This document shows, one piece after another, positions 2,488 to 10,729 of a stretch of DNA of 64,000 bases; within the stretch, counting starts at the first letter, position 1; each line of letters starts with the position of its first letter. The notes under the pieces were generated by a model. The model saw nothing but the letters and a program-made list of their open reading frames with translations. It had not been told where the DNA came from and searched no databases. The stretch comes from an uncultured Candidatus Actinomarina sp. (GTDB taxonomy: Bacteria > Actinomycetota > Acidimicrobiia > Actinomarinales > Actinomarinaceae). Both the position numbers and the translations under genes were made by a program. Location: positions 10,672-74,671 of the forward strand of contig CACOLU010000001.1 in assembly GCA_902628045.1 (NCBI GenBank), written 5' to 3'.

Positions 2488-2922
2488 ATGTCAAAAATAA
2501 CTTTATCCAGAGATGAATTTGAATCTTTTTGGGAAGCAACTGTTCGATATTATGAACTCGATCCTCAAGGGGTGATGCACAACGCTAACCATGTAGCATT
2601 TTTTGACCAGGCAATTACTGCCTATTTTAAGCATATAAATTACGATTACTTGAAGGAAATTCATGAAACAAAAAAAGATTTTCATACCGTACAGGTATTA
2701 GTCCAATACAACAAGCCTCTCTATTTTGATCAAGATATAGAAATCGGCGTCAAAGTGAAAGAAATAGGAAACTCAAGTATGACCTGGATTATGGGAATGT
2801 TTTTAAAAGAAACAGGGGAATTAGTAAGTTCTTGTGAGGCTGTTCATGTTTATACAGATCAAACAACCATGAAAGCTACACCAATAACTGAAGACCTCAA
2901 AGAAAAACTTCAGTTTAATTAA
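2488..2922 (+). CDS. acyl-CoA thioesterase, 4HBT/YbgC-like hotdog fold
   Basis: 144 aa. N-terminal VRYYELDPQGVMHNANHVAFFDQA matches the YbgC/4HBT catalytic-Asp region. Confidence 0.6.
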   Translation: MSKITLSRDEFESFWEATVRYYELDPQGVMHNANHVAFFDQAITAYFKHINYDYLKEIHETKKDFHTVQVLVQYNKPLYFDQDIEIGVKVKEIGNSSMTWIMGMFLKETGELVSSCEAVHVYTDQTTMKATPITEDLKEKLQFN

Positions 2923-2950
2923 TTGAAACCAAGACGTTAATATTGTTCAT

Positions 2951-4054
2951 ATGAACGAGAGAAGATACGACATTGACGCCTTGAGGTCAATAGCAATGTT
3001 TTTACTTATTTTTTATCATCTTGGAATTTCATTTACCTCACTCTCTCCATACATTCTTTTTGTTCAAAATAAAAGAATTTCTGATGGAATTTGGCCATTA
3101 CTCAACTTACTAAACACATGGAGGTTACCCCTAGTCTTTTTAATTGCTGGAATTGCTTTAAGGTTATCGTTTCAAAAAAGATCGCGTCCAGAAATCCTTA
3201 AAGAAAGAGTCAAGATTCTTGTAGTCCCATGGTTGTTTGGAACTATTACTTTTGCTACAGCTTCTCTCATAATTGCAGTTACATATTATGAGGGATGGTC
3301 TCCCGACTCACTATGGTTAATATTTTCTGCTTTTGAATTTAACGGTGTTCATTTATGGTTTCTTTTAAATATCTTAATTTACTGCATTCTGTTAGTTCCT
3401 GTATTAAATTTTATTTCTAATAAAAAGCAAAAATTAGGTATCTTTTCTTTTTTACTGCAAAAACCTGGAGGTATATTTATATTTTCAATACCTATTATTG
3501 CTGAAGGTTATTTTTTAAACCTTCTTAGATTTAACCCAGATTCCTATTATGGAGATTTTTACAATGGATACGCAAACACCGAGCACGGGCTTTTACTCGG
3601 TTTTCTATGGTTCTTAATTGGCATAGTATTAACTTCGCAAGGTGATATTTTTTGGGAATCTAATAAAAGAAATTGGCGTATCCACCTAGTTTTTGGAATT
3701 GTCTCTTATTTGTATAGATGGGAGAATAATTTTCAAAATGATTATGCGCTGGATAATAGACTAATAGCTTTCGAGTCTTTTAATTTTATTTTTGCGCTTC
3801 TGGGCCTTGCTGCAGTCTATTTAAACAAAGACTCACCACAATTAACCTATTACAAAACAGCTGTATATCCTGTGTACATTGTCCATCTACCCGTACAAAT
3901 GGCAGTAATGTATTTTTTTGCAGGTATAAATATTCATCCAATAATTAAATTTCCAATTGCTCTGTTCTTGATTTGCTTTCTTTCTTTAACGATTTATCAC
4001 GCAATAAAAAATATAAAGCCATTAAGGCCATTATTTGGTTTGAGAAATAAATAA
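2951..4054 (+). CDS. acyltransferase 3 family integral membrane protein
   Basis: 367 aa, about 10 TM. N-terminal RYDIDALRSIAMFLLIFYHL is typical of acyltransferase_3/OpgC-like proteins. Confidence 0.6.
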   Translation: MNERRYDIDALRSIAMFLLIFYHLGISFTSLSPYILFVQNKRISDGIWPLLNLLNTWRLPLVFLIAGIALRLSFQKRSRPEILKERVKILVVPWLFGTITFATASLIIAVTYYEGWSPDSLWLIFSAFEFNGVHLWFLLNILIYCILLVPVLNFISNKKQKLGIFSFLLQKPGGIFIFSIPIIAEGYFLNLLRFNPDSYYGDFYNGYANTEHGLLLGFLWFLIGIVLTSQGDIFWESNKRNWRIHLVFGIVSYLYRWENNFQNDYALDNRLIAFESFNFIFALLGLAAVYLNKDSPQLTYYKTAVYPVYIVHLPVQMAVMYFFAGINIHPIIKFPIALFLICFLSLTIYHAIKNIKPLRPLFGLRNK

Positions 4055-4056
4055 AA

Positions 4057-4548
4057 TTGAAAAAAACATATTTAATAATTTTTACTCTTCTCTTAAATTT
4101 ATGTTCTACTTCTAGTGATGAAGGAGTAGCTTCTCTATCAAATGAAACAACCACCACTTCGGTTATATCAGAAGAGGATTATCCAATTGTTTTAACTCAA
4201 TGCTTAAACGAAGAAATGGGGTATAACATAGCAACTCCATTTGATATACAAGATTTAAAAACTACAATTAGTCAGTTGAGCAACAGCAAAGATGAGGAGC
4301 TGAAGTTGAGGGAAGATGTTGATTACTGCATTAGCAAATATAATCTCTGGTCAGATTCATCTTCCTTGAATCCAGAAGAGCTTGCCAAAATATATGATGA
4401 AAATCTTGAATTGGCTAAGTGCTTAAGAGAAAAAGGGTTAAATGTTCCTGATCCAAGCCAACAAGAACCTAAGGTTGATTTAAGTGGGCTCAAGGAATCT
4501 AAAGATGATATTATGCCGTTGTTACAAGAATGTGGTTGGCAAAAATAA
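4057..4548 (+). CDS. acidic lipoprotein with two 2-Cys modules (paralogue A)
   Basis: TTG start; signal peptide plus lipobox LNLC(16)S. Modules LTQC..C and LAKCLREKGLNVPDP..C, with exactly 4 non-lipobox Cys. Confidence 0.75.
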   Translation: MKKTYLIIFTLLLNLCSTSSDEGVASLSNETTTTSVISEEDYPIVLTQCLNEEMGYNIATPFDIQDLKTTISQLSNSKDEELKLREDVDYCISKYNLWSDSSSLNPEELAKIYDENLELAKCLREKGLNVPDPSQQEPKVDLSGLKESKDDIMPLLQECGWQK

Positions 4549-4565
4549 GTATTAAATTAAGTCTT

Positions 4566-5156
4566 ATGAAAAAATATTTAACTATCTTCTCATTACTTAC
4601 ATTTGTTTTTATCTCTGCATGCTCTTCATCAGATGATTCGCAAGGAGTTGTTTCTACAACAGATTTATCAAGTGACACAACAGTTACAACGATTGTAGAG
4701 GAAGTTGCTGAAGAGTTAGTTTCAGTTGAAGATACACAACTTTTACTAGCTAAGTGCTTAAGAAAAAATGGATACGATATTACTGATCCTAAAAATGATC
4801 AGAGTTTACAAAGTGTTCTTCGACCAGTATTTTTAGCTGCTGATCAAAAAGGAAGAGAAGAACTTTTTGAGACAATTCAGACATGCGCTGATGAAAACAA
4901 TATTCCTCTGGGTGGCACCGCAGAATTCGAAAATCCCGAAGAAGTTGCAGATACATTAGATACTGAACTGGAATTTGCTCAATGTTTGCGAGGAAAAGGA
5001 ATAGAGGTTAAAGACCCGAATGCTGAAATACCTCTTAGATCTATTCTTATTAGCCTTGTACAATCTGGAGAATACATTGAAGATCAAATCAGAGAAGCTG
5101 CTGGAGAGTGCTTTGACGATCTTGGACTTGAACCACCACAACAAGGTGGAGGATAA
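4566..5156 (+). CDS. acidic lipoprotein with two 2-Cys modules (paralogue B)
   Basis: Start moved to the internal ATG giving MKKYLTIFSLLTFVFISAC (lipobox). Modules LAKCLRKNGYDITDP..C and FAQCLRGKGIEVKDP..C. Confidence 0.75.
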   Translation: MKKYLTIFSLLTFVFISACSSSDDSQGVVSTTDLSSDTTVTTIVEEVAEELVSVEDTQLLLAKCLRKNGYDITDPKNDQSLQSVLRPVFLAADQKGREELFETIQTCADENNIPLGGTAEFENPEEVADTLDTELEFAQCLRGKGIEVKDPNAEIPLRSILISLVQSGEYIEDQIREAAGECFDDLGLEPPQQGGG

Positions 5157-5181
5157 GACCAGGTTTCTTTATAATTTTTCT

Positions 5182-5781
5182 ATGTATAAAAAAGCTACAG
5201 CAATACTCATTCTTTTCACAGCATGTTCTTTTTTTCAACAAGATGAGCAATCTGTTGTCTCTGTTGCGGATACTGACAAAGGAAAAGAGGCAATGGCTTC
5301 TGGTGTGCAGCTTACAGACGAACGCGAAGAAATTTCAGACGAGGATGCACCTCTAGTGCTTGTTCAGTGTGTTAATGAATCAGGATATAAATTTAAAGAA
5401 CCAAAGAACTTTTTAGATCTTTACACCACAATTGCTTCATATTTTGAAACCATAACGGAACAAGAGGCTGAGGAGCTCTGGAACATAATCGAGGAATGTG
5501 CTTTGAAATATAATTTATGGGGGTTAGCAGATGAAAACCAATTTGAAGACCCAGCACAAGTATCAAAAGAAATTGATAGATCATTATTTATGGCGAAGTG
5601 TTTTAGAGAAAGTGGATATCCAAAAGTCCCAGATCCAGACTATTTCAACAGAGAAGTCAGATTAGATGCTTATATTGATGAAGACTGGGAGCTTAGAGAA
5701 GAAGATCCATTAGTACAGACATGGCAGGCATGTGAAGATAAATTACCAGAAGAGCTAAAAGATGAGGAGTGGGATGCATAA
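5182..5781 (+). CDS. acidic lipoprotein with two 2-Cys modules (paralogue C)
   Basis: Start moved to the ATG giving MYKKATAILILFTAC (lipobox). Modules LVQCVNESGYKFKEP..C and MAKCFRESGYPKVPDP..C. The first module ends C-x-x-KYNLW as in paralogue A. Confidence 0.75.
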   Translation: MYKKATAILILFTACSFFQQDEQSVVSVADTDKGKEAMASGVQLTDEREEISDEDAPLVLVQCVNESGYKFKEPKNFLDLYTTIASYFETITEQEAEELWNIIEECALKYNLWGLADENQFEDPAQVSKEIDRSLFMAKCFRESGYPKVPDPDYFNREVRLDAYIDEDWELREEDPLVQTWQACEDKLPEELKDEEWDA

Positions 5782-5847
5782 AAAACAAAGTAAAAAAATT
5801 TCTCAGAATACACACAGGTTTAATAAACTACTCTAACTGGAACAATA

Positions 5848-7428
5848 ATGAAAAATATATTTAAATTAAAAAACTTGTACATTCTAATAGCGGTGCTCGC
5901 ATTAGGTTATGGTGGTTATTATTTTGGCACTCAGAACACAGAATCGTCTACAAGCAACAAAACCCTAGAACTTACTACTGTTGCTATACAAAAAGGTGAC
6001 TTGGCAAAAAAGGAAGAATACAACGGAACCTTAAGACAGACTGACAGTAAAGTGCTCAACTCACCAATGTCAGGAGTTGTTACTTTTGTTCCTAAAGAGG
6101 GAACCATTATTAATTTCGGAGAAGTTTTATTTGCCGTCGACAACAAACCTGTAATTCTAGTCGAAGGAGTTACACCCTTTTATAGAACTTTAGATTTAAA
6201 CTCTGATGCTGGTCCTGATGTTTTACAACTTGAAGAAGCTCTTGTGTTCTTGGGTTATGCAGCAGAAGACTTTGTACCAGATGAAACTTTTGATGAAACT
6301 ACTTCGAATATGCTCAATGCACTATATATAGACTATAAGATTGACACAAAATCTGAAATAACTCCTTCCGAGCAAGTAACGATTAACTTAAAACAGACCG
6401 AAGTTGAAAGTATTGAAGACACAATATCAAATGGTGGAACAACATTAGCTGAAGTCAATAGCAAAAAGAAAACATTAGACGATGCTATAGAAAACTCAAC
6501 AAAAGAAAATGCTGCTTGGCAGGCAGCCAATAATTTAATTGAAGATTACTATCAACAAATCAATCTTTTAAAAGATCTCACAAATCCTAAAACCAATGCT
6601 AAATCACAAGAAACAAGAGATGAAGAAATAAAAAATTATGAAGATTTAATTGAAGAACAAAAAAGAATTAGAGAAATGGAAGAAGGGGAAGGATCTGTTG
6701 TTGACGGAGCAGAAGAATTAGCAATAGAGAATGCCCAAAAAGCATATGATGATGCATTAGAGAGTTACAATAAAGGTGTTGATCAGGAAGCAGAACTAGC
6801 TAAAGCAAAAGAAGAGCTTGAAGAGCTCAAATTAACAGCAAGATCTGAAACCTTTAGTCCTACAAATGCTTATGCTTCAAAAACACCGATAATTATAGGC
6901 TCCTATATTAACGATGTAGGGTCGGCGGTTGTGTTAAATTCTCCACTCTATAATATTTCTTCTATTGGAATTGAAGTTGTTTTCCAAGTTGATGCAACAG
7001 ACCAAGAAACAGTATCTCTTGGAGACAGTGTTGAGATAGAGCTTCCTACAGACGAAAGAGTACCAACTGTAATTACTTTCATAGACCAGGTTGTAACACA
7101 AACTCAAGCAGGAGAATTTATAGAGGTTACTTTAGAAGTTCTTAATCCAGAAGAAATTGAGGCTTATGATCAAGCTCCAGTAAAAGTTTTTGTCACTACA
7201 GAGATTTCCAAAAACGTTCTTTTTGTTCCGGTGAATGCACTTCTTGCTTTAGCAGAAGGAGGATATGCTTTAGAAGTTTACGACGGTGAGCTTGATACCG
7301 GAACATTTGAAGGAGAGTCTGGTGTAGATACTAGTTACGTTGCTGTTGAAATAGGTGTATTTACTGATGGCTTTGTTGAAGTAAAAGGAAATATCTCAGA
7401 GGGTCAAATAGTAGTTGTACCAAGATGA
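5848..7428 (+). CDS. HlyD/MacA-type periplasmic adaptor with peptidoglycan-binding domain and long coiled coil
   Basis: N-terminal TM helix. PG_binding_1-like GPDVLQLEEALVFLGYAAEDFVPDETFDETT. About 200 aa E/K/A-rich helical region, then a C-terminal beta-barrel-like VFVPVNALL...GQIVVVP. Confidence 0.75.
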   Translation: MKNIFKLKNLYILIAVLALGYGGYYFGTQNTESSTSNKTLELTTVAIQKGDLAKKEEYNGTLRQTDSKVLNSPMSGVVTFVPKEGTIINFGEVLFAVDNKPVILVEGVTPFYRTLDLNSDAGPDVLQLEEALVFLGYAAEDFVPDETFDETTSNMLNALYIDYKIDTKSEITPSEQVTINLKQTEVESIEDTISNGGTTLAEVNSKKKTLDDAIENSTKENAAWQAANNLIEDYYQQINLLKDLTNPKTNAKSQETRDEEIKNYEDLIEEQKRIREMEEGEGSVVDGAEELAIENAQKAYDDALESYNKGVDQEAELAKAKEELEELKLTARSETFSPTNAYASKTPIIIGSYINDVGSAVVLNSPLYNISSIGIEVVFQVDATDQETVSLGDSVEIELPTDERVPTVITFIDQVVTQTQAGEFIEVTLEVLNPEEIEAYDQAPVKVFVTTEISKNVLFVPVNALLALAEGGYALEVYDGELDTGTFEGESGVDTSYVAVEIGVFTDGFVEVKGNISEGQIVVVPR

Positions 7429-8105
7429 AAACCAGTACAAAAACTGTAATCACTATAAATAATATTTCAAAAGTTTACGAAGGCCCCCCACCTGTAAAAG
7501 CTTTAGACGGTGTCTCGCTTGAAATTAAAGAAGGAGATTTTGTCTCAATAGTTGGTCAATCAGGCAGTGGAAAATCAACATTTTTAAATATGATTGGCCT
7601 ACTAGACAGCATAACTGATGGTTCTATTGAAATTGAGGGAAAAGACGTCTCAGAACTTTCAGACAATGAGCTATCAAAGTTTAGAGGTGAGAAAATTGGG
7701 TTCATATTTCAAAGCTTTTTTCTACTGCCTGGATTAACTGCTCAGGAAAATGTCGCCGAAGGTCTTTTATACCAAGGAATTTCAAGATCAGAGAGATTAG
7801 AAAAGGCTAAGGAAGTTTTAGAACAAGTTGGTCTTGGAGATAGGCTGACTCATTTGCCAAAAGAATTGTCTGGGGGTCAGCAACAAAGAGTGGCGATTGC
7901 ACGAGCTCTTGTGCAGGATCCTGCATTCGTTCTAGCAGATGAACCAACAGGAAATTTAGATATGGAATCTGGCATAAATATACTTAATATTTTAAAAGAT
8001 TTAAACAATCAAGGTAAAACAGTAATAATGATCACTCACAACCAAGAGCATGCAAGCATGTTTAAAAAAGTTATTGAATTAGTTGACGGAAAAATAGTAA
8101 ATTAA
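7425..8105 (+). CDS. ABC transporter ATP-binding protein, MacB/LolD type
   Basis: Walker [10 protein letters not shown], signature [15 protein letters not shown], Walker [13 protein letters not shown] overlap with the adaptor gene. Confidence 0.9.
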
Positions 8106-9289
8106 TGAAAAGAAACAGACTAAAGATAAAAGACTTATTTTTTGTAGCTTTGTATGGGGTAAGAGCTAGAAAAGGCAGAGCAACACTTACATCAATAGGT
8201 ATTGGTATTGGAATCGCAGCAATCGTTGCAGTATCTGGAATTTCAGCTTCAGGCAGGGCAGATCTTCTTTCAACATTGGAGTCTCTTGGTACTAACTTAG
8301 TTAAAGCATCACCGCAAGCAGGTTTTTTCGGAACACAGGAAGAACTTCCAAAAGGAGTTTTGGGAATGGTTGAAAGGATAGGTCCAGTTCAAGAAGTTAC
8401 TTCTACAACCCAAACAGACCTTCTTGTAAGGAGAAGTAATTTTATTTCAGAATTTGAAGGTGGTGGTATTTCAACAATTGTTACTAGTGCTGAATTACTA
8501 GATGTTATAGGCGGTAATTTAATTGATGGTAGATTTATTGAGGATGGGCTCTCTGATATTCCAGTAACAGTTTTAGGCAATGTAACTGCTCAGCGATTAG
8601 GAATTAATAATTTAAACACGCCTACAAAGATATTGATAGAAAATGAATGGTTTGGAGTAGTTGGAATATTAGAAGAGCTTAAAATTCACCCAGACCTAGA
8701 TAGATCTGTGTTTATTGGATATGGTGTAGCAAAGACACTTTTTGATATTGACGAAGAGCCAACAACTATTTATTTAAGAGCTAACCCAACATTTATTGAG
8801 GATGTTGTTGAAGTACTTGCGCCATCAATGAATCCTGAAAACCCAGATCAAGTTGAAGTGACTCGCCCATCTGATGCACTCGAAGCACAACAAGCAGCTG
8901 AAGAAGCGTTTACCAATTTACTTTTAGGACTTGGTTCGGTTGCACTTCTTGTAGGTGGTGTAGCTATTGCAAATGTAATGGTTATGTCAGTTTTAGAGAG
9001 AAGAATGGAGATTGGAGTTAGAAGATCTATTGGCGCAACAAGGAGAGAAATACGATACCAGTTTTTACTAGAAAGTATTGTCTTATCTGGAATAGGTGGC
9101 CTTGTTGGGGTGCTTCTGGGAACAGCAATAACCCTGGGTTATACTAATTACACAAATATTGTATTCTCAATACCAGTATGGCAAATATTTGGAGCAGTGC
9201 TTTTAGCGTTATTAATCGGAGCTATTTCTGGTGTCTATCCAGCTATAAAGGCTTCAAAAATTCAACCAGCAGAGGCAGTTCGAAAATAA
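8105..9289 (+). CDS. ABC transporter permease, FtsX/MacB type with large extracytoplasmic domain
   Basis: 394 aa: TM1, about 200 aa loop, then 3 C-terminal TMs with the RRREIGVR-like motif (ERRMEIGVRRSIGATRREI). Ends YPAIKASKIQPAEAVR. Confidence 0.9.
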   Translation: MKRNRLKIKDLFFVALYGVRARKGRATLTSIGIGIGIAAIVAVSGISASGRADLLSTLESLGTNLVKASPQAGFFGTQEELPKGVLGMVERIGPVQEVTSTTQTDLLVRRSNFISEFEGGGISTIVTSAELLDVIGGNLIDGRFIEDGLSDIPVTVLGNVTAQRLGINNLNTPTKILIENEWFGVVGILEELKIHPDLDRSVFIGYGVAKTLFDIDEEPTTIYLRANPTFIEDVVEVLAPSMNPENPDQVEVTRPSDALEAQQAAEEAFTNLLLGLGSVALLVGGVAIANVMVMSVLERRMEIGVRRSIGATRREIRYQFLLESIVLSGIGGLVGVLLGTAITLGYTNYTNIVFSIPVWQIFGAVLLALLIGAISGVYPAIKASKIQPAEAVRK

Positions 9290-9303
9290 ATATTCTTATT
9301 TTT

Positions 9304-9807
9304 ATGTTGATTTTTTCTGCATGTACTATTGGCGGAGAAGAGTCTGAAGGGGTTGTAACTATTGAATCTACTACTGCTACAACAGTAGTAGTAGAGGAAG
9401 TTACTTTTGAAGAGGGTGTCCTTGATTTTGCACAGTGTATGAGAGAAGAAGGAATCAATTTTCCCGACCCAACATTTGATATCGACGGTAATCCTGAATT
9501 TGATAATTTAGAAATAGAAAATGAAGAGGAATTTGAAACTGCTTTTGAAAATTGTGAAGATATTTTGAGAAATGCTCTTCCAGAACAATTTGATTTAGAC
9601 CCAGAAGTAGAAGCAGCTTTAGTCGATGCTTCACTGGAGTTTTCCCAATGTATGCGAGAACAGGGAATAGATTTTCCAGACCCTAAACCTGGCGAATTTG
9701 GCTTTTTTGCATTTAGAGATGCTGATATAGACTTCAGTTCAGAGGCAGTACAAGATGCATTTGAAATCTGTCAACCGGAAAACCCTCTCGAAAACTTAGA
9801 CGATTAG
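9304..9807 (+). CDS. acidic lipoprotein with two 2-Cys modules (paralogue D)
   Basis: Lipobox FSAC. Modules FAQCMREEGINFPDP..C and FSQCMREQGIDFPDP..C. The ATG at 9304 leaves only 6 residues before the Cys, so the start is uncertain (see findings). Confidence 0.65.
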   Translation: MLIFSACTIGGEESEGVVTIESTTATTVVVEEVTFEEGVLDFAQCMREEGINFPDPTFDIDGNPEFDNLEIENEEEFETAFENCEDILRNALPEQFDLDPEVEAALVDASLEFSQCMREQGIDFPDPKPGEFGFFAFRDADIDFSSEAVQDAFEICQPENPLENLDD

Positions 9808-9813
9808 TAATTA

Positions 9814-9966
9814 ATGTTTTACGACGAAGGAAGCGACTGGATGATCATCAGTGTTGCTGTACTTTCATTAGGGGCTTTAGTATTTCAAATATGGACCAAG
9901 TACGATGAGAGGAAAAATCCTGATACGTATAGTTTTGATTGGAAATCAGCGCTTGAAGAGGAATAG
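9814..9966 (+). CDS. putative 50-aa single-pass membrane micro-protein
   Basis: My own translation: MFYDEGSDWMIISVAVLSLGALVFQIWTKYDERKNPDTYSFDWKSALEEE. Below the ORF-track size cutoff; C-terminus is shared with the 10780 ORF. Confidence 0.3.
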   Translation: MFYDEGSDWMIISVAVLSLGALVFQIWTKYDERKNPDTYSFDWKSALEEE

Positions 9967-9982
9967 TAAAGTTAATTAAATT

Positions 9983-10447
9983 TTAAATTCCAGAATCAAA
10001 AAATTCTGGCTGACTAACACTCGTAGTTCTCCAACATGGCTTGTCGTCACAAATTGTTTTTTCAAATACCCACGTTATTACAAAATAATTGTTACTTTCA
10101 GCTAACACTTTTATTTCGTATTGAATATTTTTTTCACTTTCAAAAGTGACTTCGTATGAATAATCTTTAAGATCAATTATTGCATCGTATGGTTGAGAAG
10201 TAAGCATCATTGAAAACCTTTCTATTGGTCCTGTTATTTCTTTATTTTTTTCATGTGCATACTTCCAAATAGTATTTACTGCATTACTAGGATTTTCAGA
10301 AAAAACTTTATAGATATCAAGTATCTCAACAAGAATTTCTTCAGATGATAAGGCTTGATTTACGACTGTTTGAGAAGATTCTGGTAAAACATCTGTTGTA
10401 GACGTGCAAGAAATTATAAGAAGAAAGAAAAGAAGTTTTCTAGCCAC
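9983..10447 (-). CDS. lipoprotein, unknown function
   Basis: GTG start; MARKLLFFLLIISC lipobox; 154 aa. Confidence 0.6.
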   Translation of the reverse strand: MARKLLFFLLIISCTSTTDVLPESSQTVVNQALSSEEILVEILDIYKVFSENPSNAVNTIWKYAHEKNKEITGPIERFSMMLTSQPYDAIIDLKDYSYEVTFESEKNIQYEIKVLAESNNYFVITWVFEKTICDDKPCWRTTSVSQPEFFDSGI

Positions 10448-10573
10448 CGATAAGTGAAACTACTAAATACAAATGCAAAAAGAAGGCTACAACTAAGAAG
10501 CCAAAAAAAGATTTCTTTTCAACTTTATTCACTATCAAATACTAGCAACAGTCTATTTTTTACGTAAACTGAG

Positions 10574-10729
10574 TTACTTATTTGCTTGTTCGTAAGCCTG
10601 GCTATAAAGAATAAGTGTTGGAGCCCAAAGTCCTACGTAAATCGCAAGTTGAGAATCATCTAATACAATATAAATGAGCACAGAAGCTATCACAGACACC
10701 ATGCTTGCATATAAACCTAGTTTTACCAT
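10574..10729 (-). CDS. putative 51-aa two-helix membrane micro-protein
   Basis: My own translation: MVKLGLYASMVSVIASVLIYIVLDDSQLAIYVGLWAPTLILYSQAYEQANK. Confidence 0.3.
   Translation of the reverse strand: MVKLGLYASMVSVIASVLIYIVLDDSQLAIYVGLWAPTLILYSQAYEQANK

Follow-up and report, generated by a model that had tools for sequence, protein, structure and literature searches.

The 64,000-nt stretch analysed here (the window) derives from an uncultured Candidatus Actinomarina sp. and contains, between positions 4057 and 9807, a block of seven genes that encode four small acidic lipoproteins, designated Lp1 to Lp4, and the three components of a MacAB-like exporter (Table 1). As proposed in a first-pass annotation made from the sequence alone, three lipoprotein genes in tandem are followed by those of a HlyD-type adaptor, a MacB/LolD-type ATPase and an FtsX/MacB-type permease, and then by a fourth lipoprotein gene. 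The list of open reading frames (ORFs) and the sequence confirmed that all seven genes are co-directional and occur in this order, with overlapping junctions between the adaptor and ATPase genes (ATGA, 7425-7428) and between the ATPase and permease genes (TAATG, 8103-8107). Gene order and the four paralogs are kept in Candidatus Actinomarina relatives known from single-cell and metagenome assemblies, which display 77-87% DNA identity to the window. The data presented below indicate that the four proteins belong to a large family without a name whose genes are linked to those of one type of pump, and that they may function as a dedicated accessory subunit of this pump.

Table 1. Positions of genes and modules at the lipoprotein-pump locus of the window, and of related features at loci of other genomes (L numbers)
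Feature	Sequence	Position	Strand	Remarks
Lp1	window	4057..4548	+	163 aa, TTG start; signal peptide, atypical lipobox L-N-L-C16
Lp1 modules	window	~4165-4347 and ~4384-4545	+	module profile matches
Lp2	window	4566..5156	+	196 aa; lipobox I-S-A-C19
Lp2 modules	window	~4719-4904 and ~4947-5123	+	module profile matches
Lp3	window	5182..5781	+	199 aa; lipobox F-T-A-C15
Lp3 modules	window	~5332-5517 and ~5566-5745	+	module profile matches
Membrane-fusion (HlyD/MFP-type) adaptor	window	5848..7428	+	526 aa; homology to PG_binding_1 + HlyD_3 proteins
ABC ATPase, MacB/LolD/FtsE/DarD type	window	7425..8105	+	226 aa; ABC_tran 2.9e-35
MacB-type (type VII ABC) permease	window	8105..9289	+	394 aa; MacB_PCD 6.1e-15, FtsX 2.2e-21
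Lp4	window	9178..9807	+	ORF of 209 aa from ATG 9178 (likely start); lipobox F-S-A-C, Cys codon 9322-9324
Lp4 modules	window	~9400-9567 and ~9616-9789	+	module profile matches
Divergent HAMP histidine kinase and OmpR-type regulator pair	L004	364-2192		most high-GC lineages alike
Divergent HAMP histidine kinase and OmpR-type regulator pair	L204	3674-5508		most high-GC lineages alike
MMPL-linked locus	L034	2048-5022		verified
MMPL-linked locus	L080	2671-5700		verified
MMPL-linked locus	L113	905-1639		probable

The four lipoproteins are paralogs, each containing a duplicated module with two Cys. Pairwise phmmer comparisons of Lp1 to Lp4 gave E-values of 1e-7 to 1e-19, and their alignment displays four conserved Cys positions. 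A profile of the four "a" modules recovers all four "b" modules (E 1e-6 to 1e-8), and hhalign of module a against module b gave a probability of 97.5% (E 8.7e-12). In the alignment of the eight modules, which are helical and of ca. 55 aa each, C, G, P and C are invariant. The eight motif strings quoted in the annotation were all found in the translations, and each protein has exactly four Cys beyond that of the lipobox, as claimed. In the window proteins, 32-44 residues separate the two Cys of a module, and one predicted disulfide per module is plausible. The proteins are acidic, as had been noticed, with a net charge per 100 aa of -9 to -25 versus a window median of -3.4; Lp4 is the most acidic of the four, the most constrained and the nearest to the family consensus. 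All four are under purifying selection. When computed against the Actinomarina relatives, dN/dS values were 0.03 for Lp4, 0.06 for Lp3, 0.08-0.09 for Lp1 and 0.13 for Lp2, compared to 0.09 for the adaptor, 0.03 for the permease and 0.02 for the ATPase. The constraint on Lp4 thus resembles that on the permease and ATPase, while Lp1, Lp2 and Lp3 (0.06-0.13) are similar to the adaptor.

A lipobox Cys had been ascribed to all four proteins. One is present in each, and the lipoboxes of Lp2, Lp3 and Lp4 fit the pattern [LVI][ASTVI][GAS]C; that of Lp1 does not, since position -1 is occupied by a large residue rather than by G, A or S. Lp1 orthologs carry L-S-L-C or G-F-C at this site, and Lp1 may be processed differently from the three others. 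Among the relatives, the Lp1 ortholog in L001 also has a TTG start, the length of Lp2 equals that of the gene called in L002 and L003, and Lp3 orthologs (P0060, "Candidatus Actinomarina sp.") are likewise of 199 aa. The start of Lp4 is less straightforward. Both in the window and in three Actinomarina relatives, the stretch that leads from the permease stop (9287-9289) to the hydrophobic core of the Lp4 signal peptide contains no ATG, GTG or TTG, and the ATG at 9304 lies only 6 residues ahead of the lipobox Cys. The Lp4 frame extends back into the permease gene without a stop for 45 codons, and for at least 66 codons in P0122; gene callers predicted a 209-aa Lp4 in L001 and L003 from the equivalent of ATG 9178. 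Judging from these reading frames, translation likely starts at ATG 9178, with a 112-nt overlap with the permease gene, or, less certainly, at a non-canonical codon near 9286-9304. The end of the permease gene is conserved as A-AAR-TAA (A-AAA-TAA in the window), and the alternative to the ATG 9178 start would be a -1 slip at the permease stop fusing Lp4 to the permease, in which case the Lp4 signal peptide would serve as a fifth transmembrane (TM) helix.

In agreement with the annotation, the module could not be assigned to any named family. Pfam and NCBIfam gave nothing at threshold, whether the query consisted of the window proteins, of the eight modules, of ten high-GC members or of an alignment of 60 members, and the best match of the module profile among PDB sequences had an E of 0.1. 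Several sub-threshold, low-information Pfam and NCBIfam matches (LpqN, LppU, CHCH, COX17 and H-NS) were rejected as family assignment. Those to LpqN concern 4 of 60 members (best E 2.3e-4) and can be attributed to the signal-peptide/lipobox region. A twin-Cx9C protein was discarded because the Pfam CHCH, CX9C and COX17 matches score 11-16 bits, below their cut-offs of 25-27, and span ~13 residues; no CxxC or Cx9C spacing occurs in the family modules. An EF-hand was also dismissed, since the loop following D-P reads x-F-[DG]-x-[GD]-G, a spacing unlike the D-x-[DN]-x-[DN]-G of a DxDxDG calcium loop, and neither a Pfam nor a fold match was obtained. Family members are all named "hypothetical protein" in the clusters or are evidently mis-annotated, that of Streptomyces clavuligerus being a "hypothetical protein" in RefSeq, and a full-text literature search retrieved no paper that describes the family or reports a lipoprotein as partner of MacB-type pumps in actinobacteria.

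The family is large. The eight-module profile matched at least 3275 clusters (50% identity) at E<=1e-3, and 545 when the limit was set at E<=1e-10; they come mainly from Actinomycetota (including Streptomyces), with some from Chloroflexota; among the matches listed, nearly all have two matched stretches and most are of ~170-230 aa. Representatives have exactly five Cys in 101 of 149 cases and a lipobox-like motif in 119 of 149, a TM helix taking the place of the lipobox in a few members. In a 60-sequence alignment, four Cys are invariant, both modules carry a C-x-R...G...P-D-P signature and the proteins end in a Gly/Pro-rich tail. A motif, x-V-A-S-L, is located 6-8 residues past the lipobox Cys in 69 of 125 members. 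Because the median net charge of mature proteins is -21 family-wide, acidity is a trait of the family and not a marine adaptation. Members with a single module were uninformative for disulfide pairing, most being fragments or frameshifted metagenome calls. The AF2 model of Lp4 (60 sequences) has a mean pLDDT of 80.9, with 93-97 in core blocks, and predicts four main helices bearing one Cys each, with a short hairpin in the first loop; that of Lp1 (4 sequences) has a pLDDT of 68.7. Foldseek comparison of these models with PDB detected no similar fold, thioredoxin included (best E 3.5 for Lp4 and 3.9 for Lp1), suggesting that the modelled fold either has no solved relative or is too small and simple to be matched.

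The assignment of the two ABC components was confirmed by Pfam, NCBIfam and PDB matches. The best NCBIfam models for the ATPase are DarD, MacB and LolD (1e-67 to 1e-70), then FtsE, all under equivalog cut-offs. The permease has four TM helices, the first two of which (TM1 and TM2) are separated by an extracytoplasmic core domain, the MacB_PCD (PF12704) and FtsX (PF02687) matches covering residues 27-229 and 277-388, respectively. Over its full length it matches the MacB structures 5GKO and 5LIL (1e-23 to 1e-26, best 1.7e-26), followed by the Streptococcus pneumoniae Spr0695-like protein (2e-21) and YtrF (2e-10), whereas LolC and LolF are matched at only ~1e-6 and in the TM region alone. NCBIfam likewise gives 86.7 bits for a MacB-type model versus 41.9 bits for LolC/E (TIGR02212 lolCE, cut-off 362), the individual LolC and LolE models reaching 25-26 bits; similarity at the equivalog level to a LolCDE lipoprotein-release permease was not found, and this candidate was rejected.

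The HlyD-type adaptor stood by homology and not by a direct match. The window protein itself has no Pfam match, to HlyD or otherwise, and a weak CzcB-family match in NCBIfam (1e-4), but it is homologous (E 1e-15 to 1e-46) to PG_binding_1 + HlyD_3 proteins that adjoin the lipoprotein family elsewhere. HlyD_3 is above the cut-off in two of four such homologs tested, together with PG_binding_1, which occurs in one copy, or two in Acidimicrobiia. A profile of the adaptor alignment matched the RND adaptor MexJ in PDB (2e-7) as well as several peptidoglycan-binding domains. In this alignment the peptidoglycan-binding domain follows the N-terminal region and precedes the C-terminal beta-barrel region, and it may be read as occupying the place of the MacA alpha-hairpin. 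The window adaptor comprises an N-terminal TM helix, a degenerate PG_binding_1-like segment that keeps only the first half of the conserved residues, an insertion and a C-terminal beta-barrel/membrane-proximal region. The insertion (~160 aa, window ~6430-6910) is charged and coiled-coil-like, and is absent from the seven relatives of other lineages in the alignment, Chloroflexia and Limnocylindrales proteins included. From the permease and ATPase matches and the homology of the adaptor to peptidoglycan-binding proteins, the pump is predicted to be MacAB-like (type VII, mechanotransmission), with an adaptor tied to the wall instead of to an outer-membrane duct.

Conservation of the link between lipoprotein and pump was assessed from both sides. 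A degenerate DNA pattern encoding C-M-R-x-x-G-[IV]-[DN]-x-P-D-P retrieved at least 120 8-kb tiles from 119 genomes. Among the matches listed, ~112 tiles belong to Actinomycetota, with about a dozen each from Acidimicrobiia and Thermoleophilia, and the others to Chloroflexota (six), a "Ca. Angelobacter" metagenome-assembled genome (MAG) and a "Burkholderiales" MAG. All 120 listed tiles encode a module protein. A homolog of the window adaptor lies directly downstream on the same strand in 75 of the 88 listed loci for which at least 1.5 kb of downstream sequence is available, and the full set of adaptor, ATPase and permease in 34 of the 44 with at least 4.5 kb. With Lp4 as a phmmer query, 121 of 123 related loci were detected. 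Conversely, a sample was anchored on a conserved adaptor peptide, from which the 80 loci nearest to a Nonomuraea adaptor were kept, 78 having enough upstream sequence: a lipoprotein gene is found directly upstream of the adaptor in 74 of these 78 and within ~2 kb upstream in the other four. The same order is annotated on plasmid pSCL4 of S. clavuligerus, where the operon comprises BB341_RS33850-RS29860. The dedicated lipoprotein-pump partnership suggested by the annotation is thus well documented, as far as gene order can tell: a lack of conserved linkage would, according to the annotation, have refuted it, and both samples gave the opposite result. Among the loci without an adjacent adaptor is a subfamily from Acidimicrobiia-like MAGs whose genes immediately precede an MMPL/RND transporter gene rather than those of a MacB-type pump (Table 1).

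A two-component system often completes the locus. Among loci with at least 2.5 kb of upstream sequence, an ORF of the histidine kinase (HK) type was found within 2.5 kb upstream in 52 of 67 and one of the response regulator (RR) type in 44 of 67, mostly divergent; these neighbours were confirmed in examples by Pfam and by the RefSeq annotation of pSCL4. The nearest NCBIfam models of the linked pairs are VanRS-O and heavy-metal sensors, under cut-offs, and a survey of glycopeptide resistance that followed up the VanRS-O similarity gave no lead. The kinase of L004 has HAMP, HisKA and HATPase domains and, as read from its sequence, exposes only ~45 residues in its outside loop, a hint that it relies on an accessory sensor. 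No HK or RR homolog occurs in the 64-kb window, and none was found in the ~8-kb upstream flank of three relatives.

Several other features were noted around the Actinomarina locus. A gene encoding an Acyl_transf_3 membrane acyltransferase (window 2951-4054, + strand) lies upstream of Lp1, its end separated by 2 nt from the TTG start codon. This order is common to L001-L003, and the gene may be co-transcribed with the operon. L002 and L003 have an additional 146-aa gene between Lp1 and Lp2 (6940-7380 in both) that the window does not have; it was rejected as a fifth paralog because its product is a polytopic membrane protein. Directly after Lp4, window positions 9792-9982 represent an insertion relative to L001, with a ~50-aa ORF that has a single TM helix. 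A convergent ORF of 154 aa then follows (9983-10447, - strand), which has its own lipobox (I-I-S-C) and no Pfam match and falls outside the lipoprotein family; a 152-aa ORF is called at its position in L001-L003. In L001-L003 the operon is found a few kb downstream of gyrA and DUF3566, with Peripla_BP_2, DUF2090, PFK and 4HBT thioesterase genes in between. The window starts past gyrA/DUF3566 and contains these four genes (1-2922); the neighbourhood is conserved and probably origin-proximal. A promoter and terminator scan of positions 2800-10600 detected no signal beyond the shuffled expectation.

Overall, there is about an even chance that the lipoproteins serve a peptidoglycan-anchored MacAB-like pump as its dedicated accessory subunit, tethered to the membrane on the extracytoplasmic side, as their sequences and gene context suggest. 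A lipid anchor and the membrane-proximal x-V-A-S-L motif would keep the lipoprotein beside the permease/adaptor ring, and a flexible acidic/Ser-Thr linker would be followed by two tandem helix-loop-helix modules forming a disulfide-stabilised acidic head. This head would probably capture or present the pump substrate, most plausibly cationic or amphipathic envelope-active compounds, and set the specificity, a role that is less certain than the accessory subunit as a whole. In most high-GC lineages, the divergent HK/RR pair would switch the lipoprotein-pump module on, and where a kinase is present the lipoprotein may feed into sensing as well. In Ca. Actinomarina, whose locus has no such pair, the partner gene would have been expanded to four divergent, individually conserved paralogs. 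By analogy, four paralogs with one pump in a ~1-Mb genome would fit a situation in which several binding proteins share one transporter.

Some of the data weigh against this proposal. The partnership is not obligatory, since 13 of the 88 family loci have no adjacent adaptor. Both linkage samples are biased, the first by the motif and the second towards Streptosporangiales and Micromonosporales; the two agree. The link to MMPL transporters concerns one subfamily and two verified loci, the region downstream of the third being cut off, and the atypical lipobox of Lp1 indicates that perhaps not all four paralogs are lipidated. Gene linkage and co-conservation are also expected for a cargo or for a co-regulated protein.

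The cargo explanation, which the annotation had also considered, is unlikely. It supposes that the lipoproteins are substrates of the pump, which would extract them from the membrane's outer leaflet and then push or release them via the adaptor ring, so that they enter the wall or cross it. In organisms that have no classical outer membrane this would amount to a Lol-like relocation or shedding of lipoproteins encoded in the pump's own operon, with x-V-A-S-L as recognition signal, a scenario that is just as doubtful. It would be consistent with a permease belonging to the same superfamily as LolC/E, with the lipoprotein gene being first in the operon in most lineages and with a conserved short motif beside the lipid anchor, as expected of a recognition signal. 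The several paralogs round one pump also resemble several cargo genes beside one exporter, and the process would find parallels in the action of LolCDE on lipoproteins or in the export of small disulfide-bonded peptides by MacAB; known protein substrates of the MacB family are Sec-exported and disulfide-bonded (PMC5985334). However, the permease is far closer to MacB than to LolC/E by the scores given above, a membrane-fusion protein (MFP) adaptor is a feature of MacB and not of Lol systems, and no LolA/LolB-like acceptor gene was seen in the operon. One subfamily moreover occurs with MMPL/RND transporters, for which transport of lipoproteins is not known, some members are apparently TM-anchored, and Lp4 is under the same constraint as the pump core. 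The MMPL-linked subfamily, the TM-anchored variants and this pump-like constraint make the balance lean towards an accessory subunit rather than a cargo.

Slightly more probable than export as cargo, yet still improbable, is a primarily sensory function, in which the lipoprotein, alone or bound to the pump, would be the extracytoplasmic element that perceives the stimulus for the neighbouring histidine kinase, signalling prevailing over transport as in BceAB-BceS or HbpS-SenS. The divergent HK/RR pair that adjoins most high-GC operons, the short outside loop of the L004 kinase and the similarity, under cut-offs, of these pairs to VanRS-O-type sensors of cell-wall antibiotics all point in this direction. 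The lipoprotein gene is nevertheless contiguous and co-directional with the pump genes and not with the kinase genes, and Ca. Actinomarina keeps four copies with neither a kinase nor a regulator gene at the locus, so that a co-sensor role cannot be the whole story; such a role is also compatible with the accessory subunit rather than exclusive of it. The least probable of the alternatives is an independent envelope function that is merely co-regulated with the pump, such as buffering of cations (Ca2+/Mg2+) or polycations, or a thiol/redox role. The extreme acidity of the whole family, loops rich in D, N and G past the P-D-P motif, the four invariant Cys and the weak CHCH/COX17 matches in some members would suit this idea. 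Against it, the reciprocal and near-obligate adjacency to one pump type across classes is tighter than mere co-regulation predicts, the Cys spacing and short, low-scoring matches do not support a CHCH/COX17 protein, and the acidic loop misfits DxDxDG, with no EF-hand or thioredoxin fold match.

The genome of Ca. Actinomarina is among the smallest of free-living organisms, and that it keeps one pump together with four constrained paralogs is an argument for the partnership being of importance in the surface ocean as well. More generally, MacB-type pumps act on the membrane's outer face and underlie resistance to antibiotics and peptides, lipoprotein sorting and the control of cell-wall hydrolases. 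The role of Gram-positive adaptors and of extra small partners has been posed as a question in a review of the field (PMC5985334). Here, a family without a name and with thousands of members is locked in both directions to a peptidoglycan-anchored pump across Actinomycetota, reaching Chloroflexota, and its range covers Streptomyces and further antibiotic producers. It offers as leads a candidate for the missing fourth component of the pump, a candidate specificity or sensing determinant for a widespread resistance module made of a two-component system and a pump, and a predicted new small disulfide-stabilised fold.

When compared to known systems, the pump has the same three core parts as YknXYZ of Bacillus subtilis and B. 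amyloliquefaciens, Spr0693-0694-0695 of S. pneumoniae and MacAB-TolC of Escherichia coli, namely an adaptor with an N-terminal TM helix, assigned by homology in the window, an ABC ATPase (separate or fused) and a four-TM MacB_PCD permease. As in the Gram-positive YknXYZ and Spr0693-0695, there is no outer-membrane duct. The adaptor differs from MacA in that PG_binding_1 appears to replace the alpha-hairpin in the relatives, the window protein having a degenerate copy and a coiled-coil insertion, and the operon differs from those of MacAB and YknXYZ by a conserved lipoprotein gene, with a divergent two-component system added in most lineages. An additional envelope protein that accompanies a Gram-positive MacAB-like pump recalls YknW. 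YknW is a polytopic Yip1-type membrane protein, whereas the proteins described here are helical, soluble-headed, have four Cys and are predicted to be lipid-anchored; no sequence or fold relationship between the two was found in Pfam or with Foldseek against PDB. YknW is co-transcribed with its pump, the adaptor of which it presumably modulates (PMC5985334).

With LolCDE, the pump shares the type VII ABC permease superfamily and, possibly, the association with a lipoprotein, which is the client of LolCDE. It is distinguished by the MacB-like permease, the MFP adaptor, the lack of a LolA/LolB-type carrier and a distribution in mostly monoderm organisms. The combination of a lipoprotein, an ABC transporter and a two-component regulator in one module is also found in lantibiotic immunity, in which the surface lipoprotein LanI (NisI/SpaI) binds the toxic peptide, the LanFEG transporter expels it and LanRK regulates the system. 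This is an analogy only: LanFEG is not MacB-type, the family described here is helical and predicted to be disulfide-stapled, and homology to NisI/SpaI was rejected, no Pfam or NCBIfam family being reached at threshold and Foldseek giving nothing below E 3.5. BceRS-BceAB is a further case of co-evolution, here of a two-component system and an FtsX-domain ABC transporter working on the membrane's outer face (PMC5985334). BceB, however, has ten TM helices and comes without an adaptor or lipoprotein, and the window has no kinase or regulator. Finally, in mycobacteria, MmpL exporters are encoded beside small membrane-tethered accessory proteins (MmpS, LpqN and LprG), an arrangement that resembles the pump loci described here and those of the MMPL-linked subfamily. 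No sequence relationship to MmpS/LpqN exists, and most family members pair with MacB-type rather than RND-type transporters. The type of pump is already known, while the wall-anchored variant of the adaptor, the four-Cys lipoprotein partner and its expansion to four copies in Ca. Actinomarina appear to be described here for the first time.

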